This document shows, one piece after another, positions 1 through 5,399 of a stretch of DNA of 6,503 nt. Made by a program: the position numbers and the translations under genes. The DNA is from a virus. Taxonomy: Duplodnaviria; Heunggongvirae; Uroviricota; Caudoviricetes. The notes beneath the pieces were generated by a model. The model had not been told where the DNA came from and did not search any database. It worked only from the letters and a program-made list of their open reading frames with translations. Each line of letters opens with the position of its first letter. Position 1 is the stretch's first letter. The stretch lies in the IMG/VR virus record IMGVR_UViG_2713896737_000008. One strand, written 5' to 3'.

Positions 1-926
1 TTCATGATCCGCACTTTCTGCCGGTGATTTTTGAGCATCCTCCTGAAATGGTGGAAAGCGGGGCTCACCTGCTGATGGAAAACCTCGCCATGGTTAACCC
101 GAATCTCGGTTATTCGGTGGATGAGGCCTTTCTGTACCGGGAGTACCGTAAAGCCCGGGAGGCTGGTGAGGAAGCATTTCGTGGCTTCATGTCAAAACAC
201 GCCAATGTGGAAATCGGTCTTGCCCTGCGTTCTGACCGCTGGGCGGGCGCGGATTTCTGGGAGCAGCAGGGCAGGCGCGTCAGCCTGGACGATATCCTGC
301 AGCGCGCTGATGTGGTGACGGTGGGGATTGACGGCGGGGGCCTGGATGATCTGCTGGGAATGTACGTGACTGGCCGTGACAGGGAAACCCGCGAATGGCT
401 GGGCTGGGGCCATGCCTGGGTGCATGAAACCGCGGTGGTCAGACGGAAGAGTGAGGCATCCCGGTTTCAGGATTTTGTGGCCTGTGGAGACATGACGATT
501 GTCCGTCGGGTCGGGGATGACACGGCGGAAGTGGCGGAGTATGTGCGTCGTATTCATGAGGCTGAGTTACTGGATCATATCGGTATTGACCCGTCAGGGG
601 TGGGGCAGATTCTGGATTCACTGGCGGAAGCCGGGATCCCCGATGAGAGTGTGGTGGGGATAAGCCAGGGCTGGAAGCTGGGCGGGGCCATCAAAACCAC
701 CGAGCGCAAACTGGCTGAAGGGGTGCTGATTCACGGTGATCAGCCCCTGATGGCCTGGTGTGTCGGTAATGCCCGGGTGGAGCCTAAAGGTAACGCCATT
801 CTTATCACCAAACAGGCCAGCGGACGGGGAAAAATTGACCCGCTGATGGCGCTCTTCAATGCGGTGTCCCTGATGTCCCTGAATCCGGAACCGAAAAAGA
901 AAGCGTATGAGGTTTTTTTCATATAA
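1..926 (+). CDS. Terminase large subunit (TerL), C-terminal nuclease domain; 5'-partial, with the reading frame open to the window edge (codons in phase with position 3)
   Basis: The frame containing ORF 24..926 has no stop back to position 3, so the gene starts upstream of the window. The translation carries hallmarks of the RNaseH-like nuclease domain of Terminase_1-type large subunits: 'VVTVGIDGGG...DDLLGMYVTGRD', 'GNARVEPKGNAILITKQ' and the near-C-terminal 'KIDPLMALFNAVSLM'. Stop TAA at 924-926. Recognised from memory. Confidence 0.8.
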   Translation, partial: HDPHFLPVIFEHPPEMVESGAHLLMENLAMVNPNLGYSVDEAFLYREYRKAREAGEEAFRGFMSKHANVEIGLALRSDRWAGADFWEQQGRRVSLDDILQRADVVTVGIDGGGLDDLLGMYVTGRDRETREWLGWGHAWVHETAVVRRKSEASRFQDFVACGDMTIVRRVGDDTAEVAEYVRRIHEAELLDHIGIDPSGVGQILDSLAEAGIPDESVVGISQGWKLGGAIKTTERKLAEGVLIHGDQPLMAWCVGNARVEPKGNAILITKQASGRGKIDPLMALFNAVSLMSLNPEPKKKAYEVFFI

Positions 927-952
927 CCCTGCTCACCCTGTAACCATCATGA

Positions 953-976
953 ACCGCTGCGGCGGTTTTTTTATTT
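953..976 (+). terminator. Candidate weak intrinsic terminator or RNA hairpin between terL and the capsid gene
   Basis: ACCGC (953-957) pairs with GCGGT (962-966) around a 4-nt loop, followed by a U-tract TTTTTTTATTTT (966-977). The stem is short (5 bp), so strength is uncertain. Confidence 0.35.
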
Positions 977-978
977 TC

Positions 979-984
979 AGGAGG
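979..984 (+). promoter_or_regulatory. Shine-Dalgarno sequence (AGGAGG) for the protease-capsid gene
   Basis: AGGAGG lies 5 nt upstream of GTG at 990, which is the first canonical start codon in the open frame after the terL stop. Confidence 0.6.
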
Positions 985-989
985 CTGAT

Positions 990-2927
990 GTGACTCTTAA
1001 ACGGGCCTGTTCCCTGCTGACGGTGAAATCCTTCAGTGAGGATGAACGGGTGATCACCGGGATTGCGTCAACGCCTTCTCCGGATCGGGATGGTGACATC
1101 CTGGAGCCGGAGGGGGCTGAGTTTGGCAGTACGATCCCGTTTCTCTGGCAGCATGACCATTCCCGCCCTGTAGGCCAGTGTACGGTGCGTCGGGTCAGGG
1201 AAGGGCTGGAAATCACGGCAATGCTGGTGAAGCCGGAGCCGGGGATGCCCTCCCAGATGGCAGCCCGGCTGGATGAGGCCTGGGCTGCCATTAAGACCGG
1301 GCTGGTCAGGGGGCTTTCTGTGGGCTTCCGGCCCCATGAATACACTTATCTGGACGGAGGCGGACTGCATTTTCTGCGCTGGGAGCTGATGGAGGTGTCT
1401 GCCGTCACCGTGCCCGCGAATGCGGAATGCACCATCCGGACCATTAAATATTTCGACCGCCCGTTTTCTGCCGCGTCCGGCAACCGGAAACCGGTGGTGA
1501 AAATCGCATCTTCTGCCGGCGCTTCGGCACAGTCAATAACCTCTTTTCATAAGGAAAAGTCAGCAATGAATACTGGTGAACAGATTAAAAGTTTTGAAAA
1601 CAAGCGTGCGGCGCTGGCAGCCTCCCTTGAGGAGATCATGAACAAAGCCGCAGAGGAAGGCCGCACACTGGATGTGGAAGAGGAAGAGCACTACGACAAC
1701 ACCGCAGCGGAAATCCGTCAGGTGGATGCGCACCTGAAGCGTCTGCGTGAACTGGAAACCAGTAAGGCCGCCACGGCACAGCCGGTGAAACAGGCCGGTA
1801 ACGGGAATGTGGCCACGGTGGCTTCAGCGCCGGTGATCCGTGTTGAGCAGAAACTGGAGAAGGGGATTGGTTTCGCCCGCTTTGCCAAATCACTGGCCGC
1901 GGCTAAAGGTGTCCGCTCTGAAGCCCTGGAAGTGGCCCGTCGTCAGTATCCGGATGACAGTCGTCTGCATCATGTCCTGAAATCGGCGGTGGGGGCAGGG
2001 ACCACCACGGACCCGCAGTGGGCAGGCAGCCTGTCTGAATACCAGGAATATGCGCAGGACTTTATTGATTACCTGCGTCCGCAGACCATTATCGGGCGAT
2101 TTGGTCAGGGCGGGATCCCTGCACTTCGTCAGGTGCCGTTCAATATCCGCGTGCATGCCCAGGTGTCCGGTGGTGCTGCCGGCTGGGTGGGTGAGGGTAA
2201 GGCCAGACCCCTGACGAAGTTTGATTTTGAATCCATCACCTTCAGTCATGCGAAAGTGTCGGCCATTGCGGTACTGACGGAAGAATTGATCCGTTTTTCC
2301 AGTCCGGCTGCTGATGCACTGGTCCGTAATGCGCTGGCGGAAGCGGTGGTGGCGCGTCTGGACACAGACTTTGTGGACCCGAAAAAAGCGGCGGTGGCGG
2401 ATGTCTCCCCGGCGTCCATCACCCATGATGTGAAGGGCACGGCATCAACCGGTAACCCGGATGCGGATGCCGAGGCCGCGTTTGGCCAGTTTGTGACGGC
2501 AAATCTGCAGCCCACCGGTGCGGTCTGGCTGATGTCCAGCACGAATGCCCTGGCGCTGTCCATGCGTAAAAATGCGCTGGGGCAGAAGGAATATCCGGAC
2601 ATGACCTTGCTGGGCGGGACCTTCCAGGGGCTTCCGGTAATTGTCTCCCAGTATGTGGGTGACCAGCTGGTACTGGTGAATGCACCGGATATTTATCTGG
2701 CTGATGACGGCGGTGTGGCGGTGGATATGTCCCGTGAAGCGTCACTGGAGATGCAGTCTGAACCGACCTGCGACAGCAGCACACCGTCACCGGTGGAACT
2801 GGTCTCCATGTTTCAGACCGGCAGCGTGGCCATCCGTGCGGAGCGCTGGATCAACTGGCGTCGTCGCCGTACCGCGGCAGTGGCGGTGATCACCGGTGTG
2901 AACTACGGAACTGCGTCCGGTGGCTGA
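990..2927 (+). CDS. Prohead (head-maturation) protease fused in frame to an HK97-family major capsid protein: protease domain about aa 1-160, Ala/Ser-rich linker about aa 160-192, capsid delta domain and body aa 193-645
   Basis: N-terminal part matches HK97-type prohead protease (Peptidase S78/U35-like): 'GIASTPSPDRDGDILEP', 'LWQHDHSRPVG' (candidate catalytic His), 'GLSVGF' (candidate catalytic Ser). From M193 (nt 1566) the sequence looks like the coiled-coil delta domain of HK97-fold capsid proteins ('MNTGEQIKSFENKRAALAASLEEIMNKAAEEGRTLDVEEEEHYD...LKRLRELE'), followed by capsid-body motifs ('WVGEGKARPLTKFDFESITFSHAKVSAIAVLTEELIRFSSPAADALV'). GTG start at 990 with SD; stop TGA 2925-2927. No stop separates the two domains in this sequence. 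Confidence 0.85.
   Translation: MTLKRACSLLTVKSFSEDERVITGIASTPSPDRDGDILEPEGAEFGSTIPFLWQHDHSRPVGQCTVRRVREGLEITAMLVKPEPGMPSQMAARLDEAWAAIKTGLVRGLSVGFRPHEYTYLDGGGLHFLRWELMEVSAVTVPANAECTIRTIKYFDRPFSAASGNRKPVVKIASSAGASAQSITSFHKEKSAMNTGEQIKSFENKRAALAASLEEIMNKAAEEGRTLDVEEEEHYDNTAAEIRQVDAHLKRLRELETSKAATAQPVKQAGNGNVATVASAPVIRVEQKLEKGIGFARFAKSLAAAKGVRSEALEVARRQYPDDSRLHHVLKSAVGAGTTTDPQWAGSLSEYQEYAQDFIDYLRPQTIIGRFGQGGIPALRQVPFNIRVHAQVSGGAAGWVGEGKARPLTKFDFESITFSHAKVSAIAVLTEELIRFSSPAADALVRNALAEAVVARLDTDFVDPKKAAVADVSPASITHDVKGTASTGNPDADAEAAFGQFVTANLQPTGAVWLMSSTNALALSMRKNALGQKEYPDMTLLGGTFQGLPVIVSQYVGDQLVLVNAPDIYLADDGGVAVDMSREASLEMQSEPTCDSSTPSPVELVSMFQTGSVAIRAERWINWRRRRTAAVAVITGVNYGTASGG
1551..1568 (+). promoter_or_regulatory. 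Internal Shine-Dalgarno (AAGGA) plus in-frame ATG at the protease/capsid domain junction; possible internal translation start for a protease-free capsid protein
   Basis: AAGGAAAAGTCAGCAATG: AAGGA at 1551-1555 sits 10 nt upstream of in-frame ATG 1566-1568, which is exactly where the capsid delta-domain sequence begins. Confidence 0.4.
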
Positions 2928-2971
2928 GTCTGATGAGGAGGGCGGGAGGCGCGAGCTTCCCGCAGTAACAG

Positions 2972-3193
2972 ATGGCAAAAATCCAGTATCTGCAGGGCAC
3001 GCATGATGCCCGGGCCGGGGATATCCGTGATGTGGCACAGCCGTGTGCGGAGGTGCTGGTTCGCCTGGGGAAGGCGGAGTACATCACAGCGCGACGTCCG
3101 GCAGGTCAGAAAAAGAAACGTGATGCGGAGCATGGCGAATGTGGAACCTTTTGCGGCGAACCCGAAAAAACCAGAAATCAGGACGTGACGTAA
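2972..3193 (+). CDS. Hypothetical small protein (73 aa) between capsid and portal genes
   Basis: ATG 2972 to TAA 3191-3193. The first ~45 codons have third-position and codon choices like the flanking structural genes (ctg, ccg, gcg, cgt). No recognisable SD and no motif I can assign. It overlaps the annotated portal start by 55 nt. Confidence 0.3.
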   Translation: MAKIQYLQGTHDARAGDIRDVAQPCAEVLVRLGKAEYITARRPAGQKKKRDAEHGECGTFCGEPEKTRNQDVT

Positions 3194-4503
3194 GAGAAGT
3201 GGGCTGGCGGTCCCTGTTTCAGGCGGTGGCTGAGCCTTTTGCCGGTGCCTGGCAGCAGGGTGTGAAAGCCGATCCGGAAACCGTTTTGTCCTTTCACGCG
3301 GTGTTTTCTTGCATTTCGCTGATATCCCAGGATATCGCCAAAATGCGACTGCGCCTGATGCAGACCGATACACAGGGGATCCGCCGTGAAAAACGGCAGG
3401 GGGATATTGCCCGTCTCTGTCGTCGTCCTAATGCACAGCAGAATCGTATCCAGTTTTTTGAACTGTGGCTGAACGCCAAACTGCGTCACGGCAATACGGT
3501 GGTGCTGAAAATCCGTAACTCCCGGGGGCAGATCAAAGAACTGCGTATTCTGGACTGGAACCGGGTTGAACCTCTGGTGGCGGATGACGGCGAGGTGTTC
3601 TATCGCATCACGCCGGACCGGAACTGCGGGATCACGGAGGCGGTGACGGTGCCTGCCCGGGAAGTGATCCACGACCGGTTTAACTGTTTTTTTCATCCGC
3701 TTGTGGGGCTGCCGCCGGTGTATGCCGCCGGGCTGGCGGCCATGCAGGGGCATCATATTCAGGCAAATTCGACGTATTTTTTCAGAAATGGCGGGCGACC
3801 ATCAGGCGTGATTGAGGTCCCCGGCAGTATTACGGAAGAAAACGCGAAAAAACTGAAGGGGAACTGGGACAGCGGATATACGGGCGAAAATGCCGGGAAG
3901 ACGGCCATACTGAGCAACGGGGCAAAATACAGCCCCACGACGTTTTCACCGGTGGATGCGCAGACGGTGGAACAACTGAAAATGACGGCTGAAATTGTCT
4001 GTTCGGTGTTCCGTGTCCCGGCCTACAAGATTGGCGTTGGCCACCCGCCTTCCAGTGACAACGTGGAGGCGCTGGAGCAGCAGTATTATTCCCAGTGTCT
4101 GCAGACGCTGATTGAGTCCATTGAGCTGTTACTGGATGAGGCGCTGGAAACGGGGGAAAACGAGAGCACGGAGTTTGACGTCACCACGCTGCTGAGAATG
4201 GACAGCGAACGGCGCATGAAAACACTGGGTGAATCGGTGAAAAATACGCTTCTCACGCCCAATGAGGCCCGTAAACGTGAGAACCTGCCGCCCCTTGCCG
4301 GCGGTGATGCACTGTATCTTCAGCAGCAGAACTACAGTCTGGAGGCGCTGTCCCGTCGTGATGCCCGTGAGGACCCGTTCGCGTCGGCCGGGAAAACAGT
4401 TTCAGCACAACTGCCTGACGGCGCATCTGACGGTAATAAGGCAATCAGTGAAACAGAGCATGATGCAGTGAAAGCGATGTTCAGGGGGATACTGAGAAAA
4501 TGA
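3139..4503 (+). CDS. Portal protein, HK97 family
   Basis: Portal-type motifs: N-terminal 'PETVLSFHAVFSCISLISQDIAKMRLRL'; central 'FFRNGGRPSGVIEVPGSITEENAKKLKGNWDSGYTGENAGKTAILSNGAKYSPTTFSPVDAQTVEQLKMTAEIVCSVFRVPAYKIG'. ATG 3139 has GGAG 8 nt upstream. An in-frame GTG at 3199, just after the small-ORF stop, is an alternative start. Stop TGA 4501-4503. Confidence 0.85.
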   Translation: MWNLLRRTRKNQKSGRDVREVGWRSLFQAVAEPFAGAWQQGVKADPETVLSFHAVFSCISLISQDIAKMRLRLMQTDTQGIRREKRQGDIARLCRRPNAQQNRIQFFELWLNAKLRHGNTVVLKIRNSRGQIKELRILDWNRVEPLVADDGEVFYRITPDRNCGITEAVTVPAREVIHDRFNCFFHPLVGLPPVYAAGLAAMQGHHIQANSTYFFRNGGRPSGVIEVPGSITEENAKKLKGNWDSGYTGENAGKTAILSNGAKYSPTTFSPVDAQTVEQLKMTAEIVCSVFRVPAYKIGVGHPPSSDNVEALEQQYYSQCLQTLIESIELLLDEALETGENESTEFDVTTLLRMDSERRMKTLGESVKNTLLTPNEARKRENLPPLAGGDALYLQQQNYSLEALSRRDAREDPFASAGKTVSAQLPDGASDGNKAISETEHDAVKAMFRGILRK

Positions 4504-5399
4504 CGGAACGGGAACTGTCCATTATTCGTGCACTGGGCGAAGAATTCTCCACGGTGCTGGCGGATTTACAGCGCACATTTGAGGGGAAGATGGCCGCGCA
4601 GGCACAAGCGTTTGAAGAGAAACTGGCTTCCCTGTCGGCGGTATTACAGAAGCATGTGACGGTGGATGAGGTACATCCGGTTCTGCAGGCGATGGTGGAT
4701 GACGCTGTGGGGACCATTCCGGTACCGCGTGATGGTCGTGATTATGATCCGGATGTACTGCAGCAGGCGGTGAATGATGCGGTTGCGAATATTCCGGTAC
4801 CGGCGGACGGCAAAAGTATCACCCCCGATGATGTGCGTCCGATGCTTGAGCAGATGGTGAAAGAGGCTGTAAGCCATATCCCTGCTCCGCGTGACGGTCG
4901 TGATTATGATCCGGAAGTACTGAAGCAGGCGGTTCTGGAGGCGGTGAATGCCCTTCCGGCTCCGCAGGACGGGCGTGATGCCACGGCACTGGAAGTGCTC
5001 CCCGCTATTGACGATCAAAAATCCTTTCCCCGGGGCACGTATGCCACACACCTGGGTGGACTCTGGCGGGCGTATGAAAAAACGCACGGGATGCGGGGAT
5101 GGGAATGCCTGGTTGACGGGGTGGCGGATATCGACGTCAGCATGACGGATGAGCGGTTGTTCTCTGTGGTGATCCGGCAGAGCAGTGGCCAGTGTACGGA
5201 AAAAACATTTTCCCTGCCGGTGATGCTCTACCGCGGTGTGTTCAGAGCCGGTGAAACCTACCACCCCGGCGATACGGTGACGTGGGGGGGCTCGCTGTGG
5301 CACTGCAACAGTATGACCGGTGATAAACCCGGAGAAGCTCATTCATCAGGCTGGACCCTGGCTGCAAAACGTGGACGGGATGCAGGAGGCGGAAAATGA
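4500..5399 (+). CDS. Repeat-containing protein of unknown function: N-terminal coiled-coil-like segment, tandem Pro/Asp/Gly-containing repeats, C-terminal aromatic-rich globular domain; candidate virion accessory (decoration or fibre-like) protein
   Basis: ATG 4500-4502 overlaps the portal stop (ATGA), with a G-rich SD upstream. Protein-like composition and the same codon usage as its neighbours. Contains two ~54-aa tandem repeats and a C-terminal segment with 'YHPGDTVTWGGSLWHCN...GWTL'. Function is not assignable from sequence alone. Confidence 0.7.
   Translation: MTERELSIIRALGEEFSTVLADLQRTFEGKMAAQAQAFEEKLASLSAVLQKHVTVDEVHPVLQAMVDDAVGTIPVPRDGRDYDPDVLQQAVNDAVANIPVPADGKSITPDDVRPMLEQMVKEAVSHIPAPRDGRDYDPEVLKQAVLEAVNALPAPQDGRDATALEVLPAIDDQKSFPRGTYATHLGGLWRAYEKTHGMRGWECLVDGVADIDVSMTDERLFSVVIRQSSGQCTEKTFSLPVMLYRGVFRAGETYHPGDTVTWGGSLWHCNSMTGDKPGEAHSSGWTLAAKRGRDAGGGK
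4671..4994 (+). repeat. In-frame tandem repeat inside CDS 4500..5399: two 54-aa (162-nt) units, each made of ~25-aa subunits of the type [I/L]-P-x-P-x-D-G-[R/K]-D...V-L-x-Q-A-V-x-[D/E]-A-V
   Basis: Protein: 'VHPVLQAMVDDAVGT IPVPRDGRDYDPDVLQQAVNDAVAN IPVPADGKS...' against 'VRPMLEQMVKEAVSH IPAPRDGRDYDPEVLKQAVLEAVNA LPAPQDGRD...'. DNA: core 4725-4771 (ccgcgtgatggtcgtgattatgatccggatgtactgcagcaggcggt) against 4887-4933 (ccgcgtgacggtcgtgattatgatccggaagtactgaagcaggcggt), offset 162 nt, 3 mismatches in 47 nt. 'attccggtaccg' also recurs at 4716 and 4791. Confidence 0.8.

Follow-up and report, generated by a model that had tools for sequence, protein, structure and literature searches.

A protease-capsid fusion gene of lambdoid prophages with a conserved candidate internal start at its domain junction

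The fused gene and its domains

The 6,503-nucleotide (nt) stretch of DNA analyzed here (hereafter the window; IMG/VR record IMGVR_UViG_2713896737_000008, Caudoviricetes) is a head-morphogenesis module of a long-tailed lambdoid prophage (Stx-type, Sawaravirus-like) of Escherichia coli O157. The only gene in this module with a capsid fold is a single open reading frame (ORF) at positions 990 to 2927, which is a genuine and conserved fusion of protease, linker, scaffold, and capsid segments and which very probably functions as a nested pair of genes, with a second, protease-free product initiated within the frame. Chromosomal prophages of O157 are 100% identical to the window over positions 900 to 3000, Stx2a_WGPS2 is 99.9% identical over the same interval, and a scan of 5,426 complete E. 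coli genomes located similar sequence at 2,976 places in 1,251 genomes, with a maximum of 7 copies per genome. The RefSeq record that is 100% identical over positions 900 to 3000 carries the coding sequence of 645 amino acids (aa) as “phage major capsid protein” (WP_000173077.1). The features of the gene are as follows.

979-984, plus strand: main Shine-Dalgarno (SD) sequence AGGAGG, 5 nt 5' of the GTG start (dG, -10.3 kcal/mol)
990-2927, plus strand: full-length ORF, 645 aa, ~70 kDa, with a GTG start and a TGA stop at 2925-2927
990-1460, plus strand: predicted prohead serine protease domain, aa 1-157 (His55 at 1152-1154, Ser110 at 1317-1319)
1461-1565, plus strand: Ala/Ser-rich linker, predicted to be disordered, aa 158-192, sitting where HK97 gp4 has its C-terminal tail
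1551-1555, plus strand: internal SD sequence AAGGA, 10 nt before ATG 1566 and read as Lys-Glu in the fusion
1566-1568, plus strand: internal in-frame ATG (codon 193, Met193), putative start of a protease-free capsid protein
1566-2927, plus strand: nested ORF, 453 aa, ~49 kDa, scaffold plus capsid, the putative second product
1566-1844, plus strand: scaffold (“delta”) domain, aa 193-285, from an AlphaFold2 model
2013-2924, plus strand: HK97-fold capsid domain, ~aa 342-645, from Pfam and Foldseek

An earlier reading of these letters by themselves (the sequence-only reading) had described one uninterrupted frame of 645 aa at these positions that joins a protease domain, an Ala/Ser-rich linker, and a capsid protein with its own delta domain; the coordinates, the GTG start, and the TGA stop all match, and the domain assignments hold. 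The N-terminal segment matches Pfam PF04586 Peptidase_S78 over aa 48-151 (32.7 bits against a cutoff of 21 bits) and PHROG 80, “head maturation protease” (E value of 1.4e-40), aligns by hhalign to residues 12-163 of HK97 gp4 (96.6% probability; E value of 5e-10), and recovers the assemblin/prohead-protease fold in a fold search. In the hhalign alignment, H55 falls on H65 of gp4 and S110 on S114, which we take to be the catalytic residues of gp4. The sequence-only reading had placed the catalytic histidine in “HDHSRPVG” and the serine in “GLSVGF”: the serine is S110, and of the two histidines it is the first, H55, that fits, since 34 homologues, with identities down to 37%, all retain H55 and S110, whereas H57 is variable. 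We regard aa 1-157 as a prohead serine protease of the HK97 gp4 type, its catalytic role being predicted from these alignments. Homology to gp4 ends at about aa 157, and nothing in the window protein corresponds to the C-terminal tail of gp4. A sequence search of the PDB with the fusion protein returned no protease match and one weak capsid match (9d9w; E value of 0.004).

In an AlphaFold2 model of the full-length protein (predicted local distance difference test [pLDDT] score of 76), pLDDT is <50 across aa 146-192, and the linker is also the most variable segment of the homologue alignment. The first predicted helix of the scaffold domain begins two residues past Met193, where the disordered linker ends; helices are predicted at aa 195-223 and 229-262, followed by a disordered stretch at aa 264-285, and this arrangement fits a delta domain, a scaffold fused to the capsid protein (PMC10275583). 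Further helices modeled at aa 293-331 may also be part of the scaffold domain. The PHROG 10 and PHROG 617 major head protein profiles span the scaffold region. C-terminal to it, Pfam PF05065 Phage_capsid matches aa 386-635 (55.2 bits; cutoff of 24.2), and Foldseek against the PDB retrieves the capsid proteins of Bxb1, HK97, D3, and T5 (E values of 2e-14 to 1e-9). Alignment of the family profile to HK97 gp5 with hhalign is nonsignificant (probability of 2%). The capsid domain is thus of the HK97 fold, though it has no close relative in gp5. That it forms the main shell of the virion is suggested indirectly, by its being the sole capsid-fold gene of the module and by the “structural protein” label of a 48%-identical homologue, ORF003 of PAJU2. 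One E. coli O157:H- homologue (P0005, 602 aa) lacks about 40 residues, aa ~294-334, corresponding to the helical stretch that joins the scaffold hairpin to the HK97 fold; either it is a defective prophage copy or this segment is dispensable.

Fused homologues are widespread. Most of the 120 top-scoring homologues measure 644-648 aa, and nearly all contain both Pfam domains; at 73-77% identity they span genera of Enterobacterales (Salmonella, Klebsiella, Enterobacter, Serratia, Pantoea, Kosakonia, and others). The uninterrupted ORF also occurs, at 31-54% identity, in alpha- and betaproteobacterial genomes and in metagenomes. When 1.84 billion representatives of 50%-identity clusters were searched exhaustively, there were 12,107 matches, of which 1,164 clusters at an E value of ≤1e-30 delimit what we treat as the proteobacterial family. 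Among its best 150 representatives (38-56% identity), almost all are fused (144/150), which answers how often homologues are fused or split, a point raised by the sequence-only reading. At the level of loci, the frame is uninterrupted at 19 of 22 gene-spanning genome loci (including those of Reyranella, Caulobacter, Candidimonas, and a metagenome-assembled genome of Burkholderiaceae) and at 78 of 80 viral-contig loci. Several representatives (P0123 and P0132, ~1,090 aa; P0134, P0195, and P0250, ~850-866 aa) have 200-440 extra residues N-terminal to the fusion and may be larger fusions (e.g., with portal or terminase) or gene-calling run-ons.

A fused gene of this kind could also arise if a 1-nt indel within ~1448-1550 had merged two genes, the true protease ending at TAA 1550-1552. 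This codon is present in the +2 frame, as the sequence-only reading had reported, and some relatives do have truly separate genes. Against this, thousands of independent assemblies have the same frame open, as do distant genera whose linkers differ in length and sequence, PHROG 617 matches the fusion from end to end (aa 1-639; 626-position profile; E value of 3.5e-259), and the 48%-identical ORF003 of Pseudomonas phage PAJU2 is annotated as a structural protein. We give an artifact a negligible probability. Because the open frame is conserved across many genomes and distant genera, we take ORF 990-2927 to be a genuine fusion, as the sequence-only reading had preferred, and consider a sequencing frameshift or a pseudogene excluded.

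The fusion itself is ordinary and already catalogued. The label “major head protein/prohead protease” appears in the records of long-tailed Stx phages (Stx2a_WGPS4, -6, and -8, BP-4795, and 1717), Salmonella phage FSL SP-016 carries a protease-capsid fusion of the same family, and ORF003 of PAJU2 (AP009624; 48% identity over 100% of the query) is labeled “structural protein; prohead protease fused capsid protein” in GenBank. These proteins share the domain order of PHROG 617 and match the window protein end to end at 48-100% identity; structurally, the window protein is a plain member of this family, whose records list one product and in no case an internal start.

The candidate internal start at the junction

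The sequence-only reading had further suggested that a good SD sequence, 10 nt before the in-frame ATG at 1566, could yield a protease-free capsid protein alongside the fusion. The location of the element is as described, its strength within the window is modest (-6.2 kcal/mol), and the proposed internal start finds strong support in comparisons across the family. These begin with the relatives in which the two genes are separate (those of Acidovorax, Snodgrassella, viral contig L104, and Moraxella phage Mcat6): the stop codon of the protease gene lies just 5' of the capsid start codon or overlaps it, a similar SD sequence and start are retained, and the capsid gene starts at the position aligned to the junction start; standalone capsid proteins among the cluster representatives likewise begin at query residue 193. 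The fused form thus looks like the split form minus a stop codon, with a complete translation-initiation region retained over a long divergence.

We examined the junction in 98 fused ORFs, which fall into 34 clusters at <80% identity and extend down to 33% identity to the window, taking as the junction start whichever start-type codon lay closest to an alignment anchor, at a distance of ≤10 residues. This codon is ATG in 94 of the 98 ORFs and GTG in the other 4, and all 98 have an SD-like element 5-12 nt 5' of it, often the full AGGAGG. SD strength was scored as the energy of the duplex with the anti-SD sequence, an ungapped information-content profile having diluted the signal as spacing varies. 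With one representative per cluster, the median dG is -6.4 kcal/mol at the junction versus -2.8 kcal/mol at 435 other in-frame ATGs (Mann-Whitney, P = 2.6e-16), and the junction SD ranks first among internal SDs in 20 of the 34 clusters. The mRNA is also more open at this point: the 50 nt around the junction start fold at -7.5 kcal/mol versus -13.9 kcal/mol around control ATGs (P = 5e-14), with GC contents of 0.48 and 0.61, respectively. An SD sequence and ATG at the junction thus exceed chance across the 34 clusters and are unremarkable in the window alone, and all 34 clusters keep, where the domains meet, the signals of an internal initiation region (a start codon and its ribosome-binding site).

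Met193 is invariant in 16 sequences of ≥73% identity, although it abuts the most variable segment of the protein. Among 144 distant fused representatives, an exact-column count in a 150-sequence MAFFT alignment, in which the linker aligns poorly, found Met in 73, and re-anchoring on “EQI” raised the count of those with Met in the junction window to 130 (background, 28%). Of the 14 that lack Met, 13 have Val at the usual Met position, consistent with GTG starts, and the Reyranella locus reads AAGGAGG and then GTG at its junction.

A purine-rich element within a coding sequence might instead serve the protein, as a cleavage site in the linker or as an SD-like pause that lets the protease fold first. 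Residues K, E, and G are frequent before Met193 and its equivalents, and it would be plausible for processing to occur between the protease and the capsid protein. The SD core, however, is spread over all three codon registers (23, 9, and 2 of the 34 clusters) and is read as 13 different peptides (KG, QEG, KE, KEG, KD, QE, EEG, LE, KV, ED, KEA, RR, and PE), so that no peptide motif is conserved, while its spacing to the start remains 5-10 nt in 33 of the 34 clusters. This drift through registers and peptides argues that the constraint at the junction acts on the RNA and not on the peptide. A role in the protein or in elongation would also leave unexplained both the start-type codon 5-12 nt downstream and the match to the starts of standalone capsid proteins. 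We rejected a peptide-level motif or cleavage site as the source of the element on the basis of the register and peptide analysis, and we consider this explanation as a whole highly improbable.

More serious, though still unlikely in our estimation, is the possibility that the full-length fusion is the sole product and that the SD and ATG at the junction are a functionless remnant of once separate genes; every capsid subunit would then bear a protease domain that removes itself after assembly. The split relatives, from which the fused form differs by a stop codon, are compatible with such a history, as are the modest internal SD of the window beside its stronger main SD, the treatment of comparable actinobacteriophage genes simply as fusions in the literature (PMC5513430, PMC7302621), and the lack of a clear junction start in 2 of 7 actinophage fusions. 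A remnant should nevertheless decay in a hypervariable, disordered linker, and here every one of the 34 clusters, at identities as low as 33%, retains the start codon and SD sequence; the SD drifts across registers and peptides and yet holds an SD-like spacing, and the local mRNA stays unstructured and A/U-rich. The predominance of the fused form among the best representatives (144 of 150) also points to an old fusion and not to serial recent events.

Several points weigh against use of the internal start. The internal SD of the window (-6.2 kcal/mol) is matched by 2 of the 11 other in-frame ATGs, and its AAGGA is weaker than the main AGGAGG (-6.2 versus -10.3 kcal/mol). Our choice of the nearest start-type codon to the anchor introduces some selection bias, the P values overstate independence even after clustering, the sequences being phylogenetically related, and the case for the internal start is one of comparative conservation throughout. 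The internal site could be blocked by ribosomes that began upstream and are elongating through it, and by a rough estimate, itself an inference, a procapsid built of the fusion only may be compatible with packing.

A separate capsid transcript, in the style of UL26.5 of herpes simplex virus (HSV), was considered and rejected, as a crude scan of positions 850-3200 for sigma-70 promoters found no internal promoter. Late transcription in lambdoid phages originates far upstream.

A probable nested gene pair and its parallels

In the nested gene pair that we favor, initiation at GTG 990 would produce the 645-aa protease-capsid fusion, and initiation at ATG 1566, directed by the SD sequence at 1551-1555, would produce the 453-aa protease-free scaffold-capsid protein. 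Because the whole assembly-competent part is common to both, the two products would be expected to coassemble into procapsids, in which the fusion subunits would carry the protease inside the shell on a tether of ~45 residues, in place of the targeting tail of HK97 gp4. Linkers and scaffold domains would be excised by the protease once assembly is complete, followed by maturation of the shell, and the ratio of the two initiation events would fix the dose of protease per procapsid. From the sequences, we infer the use of the internal start, the coassembly, the stoichiometry, and the cleavage sites. The maturation cut is predicted to fall between about aa 263 and 341.

HK97 offers a comparison for the individual domains, in that its protease gp4 is homologous and its capsid protein shares the HK97 fold and an N-terminal helical scaffold domain. 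Its protease and capsid genes are separate, however (positions 3348-4025 and 4028-5185), whereas here they are fused, and the gp4 tail, which in work by Duda and colleagues from 2013 is said to target the protease into the HK97 shell, is absent from the window protein, which has a covalent linker to the capsid protein in its stead. In PAJU2, of the same PHROG 617 type as the window protein, the junction reads AGGAGG and then ATG (M197).

For the expression scheme, the closest analogy, not named in the sequence-only reading, lies with nested protease/scaffold genes. The pairs C/Nu3 of lambda and UL26/UL26.5 of HSV-1 are nested, and within each pair the two products share an assembly-active C-terminal part; UL26.5 of HSV arises from a separate transcript and not from an internal ribosome-binding site. 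An archaeal virus, HFTV1, has a nested protease/scaffold gene, gp17/gp17.5, with an in-frame internal start, and in such genes a long product with an N-terminal protease of the assemblin fold is accompanied by a short, abundant product without it, the ratio of the two setting the dose of protease (bioRxiv 10.64898/2026.09.13.751334). For gp17 of HFTV1, a second initiation peak has been shown, with ribosomes denser past the internal start than before it. ORF 990-2927 has both an N-terminal protease on the long product and a shared assembly domain, as in the lambda C/Nu3 type. In lambda, HSV-1, and HFTV1, however, the shared part is a free scaffolding protein, whereas here it is a capsid protein with a built-in scaffold, and internal initiation has been demonstrated in those systems, whereas here it is deduced from conservation. 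ORF 990-2927 therefore resembles a nested protease/scaffold pair in its logic yet is a distinct variant. Preprints on CBASS escape and on cf-PICI were also considered and set aside, as they deal with protease-scaffold fusions or separate genes of a different architecture.

The same architecture recurs in small actinobacteriophages, whose genes for a joined protease, scaffold, and HK97-like capsid have been remarked upon as unusual (PMC5513430, PMC7302621). No sequence similarity to the window protein is detectable in these proteins, and the actinophage fusions are probably independent of its family; Orf7 of Rhodococcus phage RRH1 has no Pfam match. We scanned seven of them (L111-L117: Rhodococcus RRH1; Gordonia GMA5 and EricDab; Arthrobacter BlueFeather, Maggie, and Adaia; and Curtobacterium Root), and in five an in-frame ATG that ranks first or second and has an SD sequence lies in open mRNA at a plausible, presumed domain boundary (RRH1 M274, GMA5 M265, Root M178, Maggie M160, and Adaia M162). 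EricDab and BlueFeather yielded no clear candidate in the same scan. These candidates suggest that nested starts may occur in actinophage fusions as well. The candidate starts typically read “...RKE..” before the boundary and “M...” after it, encoded by GAAAGGAA. The annotated ORFs of RRH1 and EricDab open with a hydrophobic, membrane-like segment, which suggests either a misset start or a third fused part.

We lean slightly toward a broader reading, in which protease-capsid fusion genes are generally nested pairs, comprising the proteobacterial family and, independently, some of the actinobacteriophage fusions; under this reading, translation would set the dose of protease, which would need no separate targeting signal. 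Literature searches with partial access returned no description of an internal start in protease-capsid fusions. The nested internal start appears well supported by the comparative evidence, if unproven, and the general nested-pair scheme appears to be undescribed. If the internal start is used, it would constitute a third way of dosing a maturation protease into the procapsid, beside the targeting tail of HK97 gp4 and the free scaffold to which the protease is fused in lambda C/Nu3 and HSV UL26, and the nested-gene logic of tailed phages, herpesviruses, and archaeal viruses would reach phages whose scaffold is borne by the capsid protein. Production of capsids or nanocompartments from such genes would then require both products. 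The gene is present in isolated phages such as PAJU2 and in inducible Stx phages, which makes the scheme readily testable.

The surrounding head module

The genes of the window follow the order TerL, ORF 990-2927, a 73-aa ORF, portal, a repeat-containing ORF, head-tail adaptor, and head closure protein. The remaining features are as follows.

24-926: C terminus of TerL, the first gene in the module order
951-978, plus strand: terminator-like hairpin (951-968) with a T-run, between terL and the fusion gene, from a consensus scan
2942-2963, plus strand: GC-rich hairpin without a T-run, 15 nt past the stop codon and preceded by GAGGAGG
3139-4503: portal, 454 aa, after the 73-aa ORF
4500-5399: repeat-containing ORF, 299 aa, followed by the head-tail adaptor and the head closure protein

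The portal gene lies 3' of the capsid gene (window positions 24-4503), an order that is common to PAJU2 (L110) and the Moraxella Mcat phages (Mcat6, L109). The phages of the PHROG 617 type named above have TerL, the fusion gene, small ORFs, and portal in this succession, in contrast to the usual arrangement, seen in HK97, in which TerL is followed by portal, protease, and capsid.

Upstream of the fusion gene, the main SD is kept in relatives, the majority of which start with ATG and not GTG, and the GCGGGTTTTTT motif of positions 951-978 is kept 5' of the start in enterobacterial relatives. When positions 925-1010 are folded, the main SD is partly paired in the minimum-free-energy structure, with a z-score of only -1.15, which is nonsignificant; the modeled hairpin at 951-978 could shift initiation away from the upstream start in favor of the internal one. 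Downstream of the gene, positions 2925-2975 fold at -21.6 kcal/mol (z-score of -3.3), and the hairpin at 2942-2963 is possibly a 3' stabilizer of the mRNA or a processing element.

Between the capsid and portal genes, the 73-aa ORF (positions 2972-3193; PHROG 829) is conserved, is carried as “hypothetical” in RefSeq, and runs 55 nt into the annotated portal start. The portal gene in turn shares an ATGA overlap with ORF 4500-5399, and in CP022050 RefSeq annotates the portal and the next ORF together as one “frameshifted” portal pseudogene; PHROG 2271 (859 positions) covers both. Nearly all of 16 enterobacterial relatives have a portal of ~450-480 aa and then a separate ORF of ~294-400 aa, with an overlap of 4 nt (8 nt at two loci). 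Because these relatives keep separate, overlapping ORFs, we interpret the split as native and the two ORFs as translationally coupled, with the “frameshifted” flag apparently an artifact of annotation.

The ORF after the portal carries a repeat unit of 162 nt (54 aa) with PVPRDGRDYDPDVLQQAV (window positions 4665-4945; L002 positions 8766-9551). Tandem Repeats Finder did not detect repeats in ORF 4500-5399, and the 162-nt unit emerged from another repeat search. There are 2 copies in the window and ~5 in CP022050, and the products across prophages are 299, 407, and 461 aa long, in steps that are multiples of 54 aa. Its C-terminal match to CBM_5_12 is weak and subthreshold (E value of 0.0014). 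The product may be a head decoration or fiber protein of variable length.

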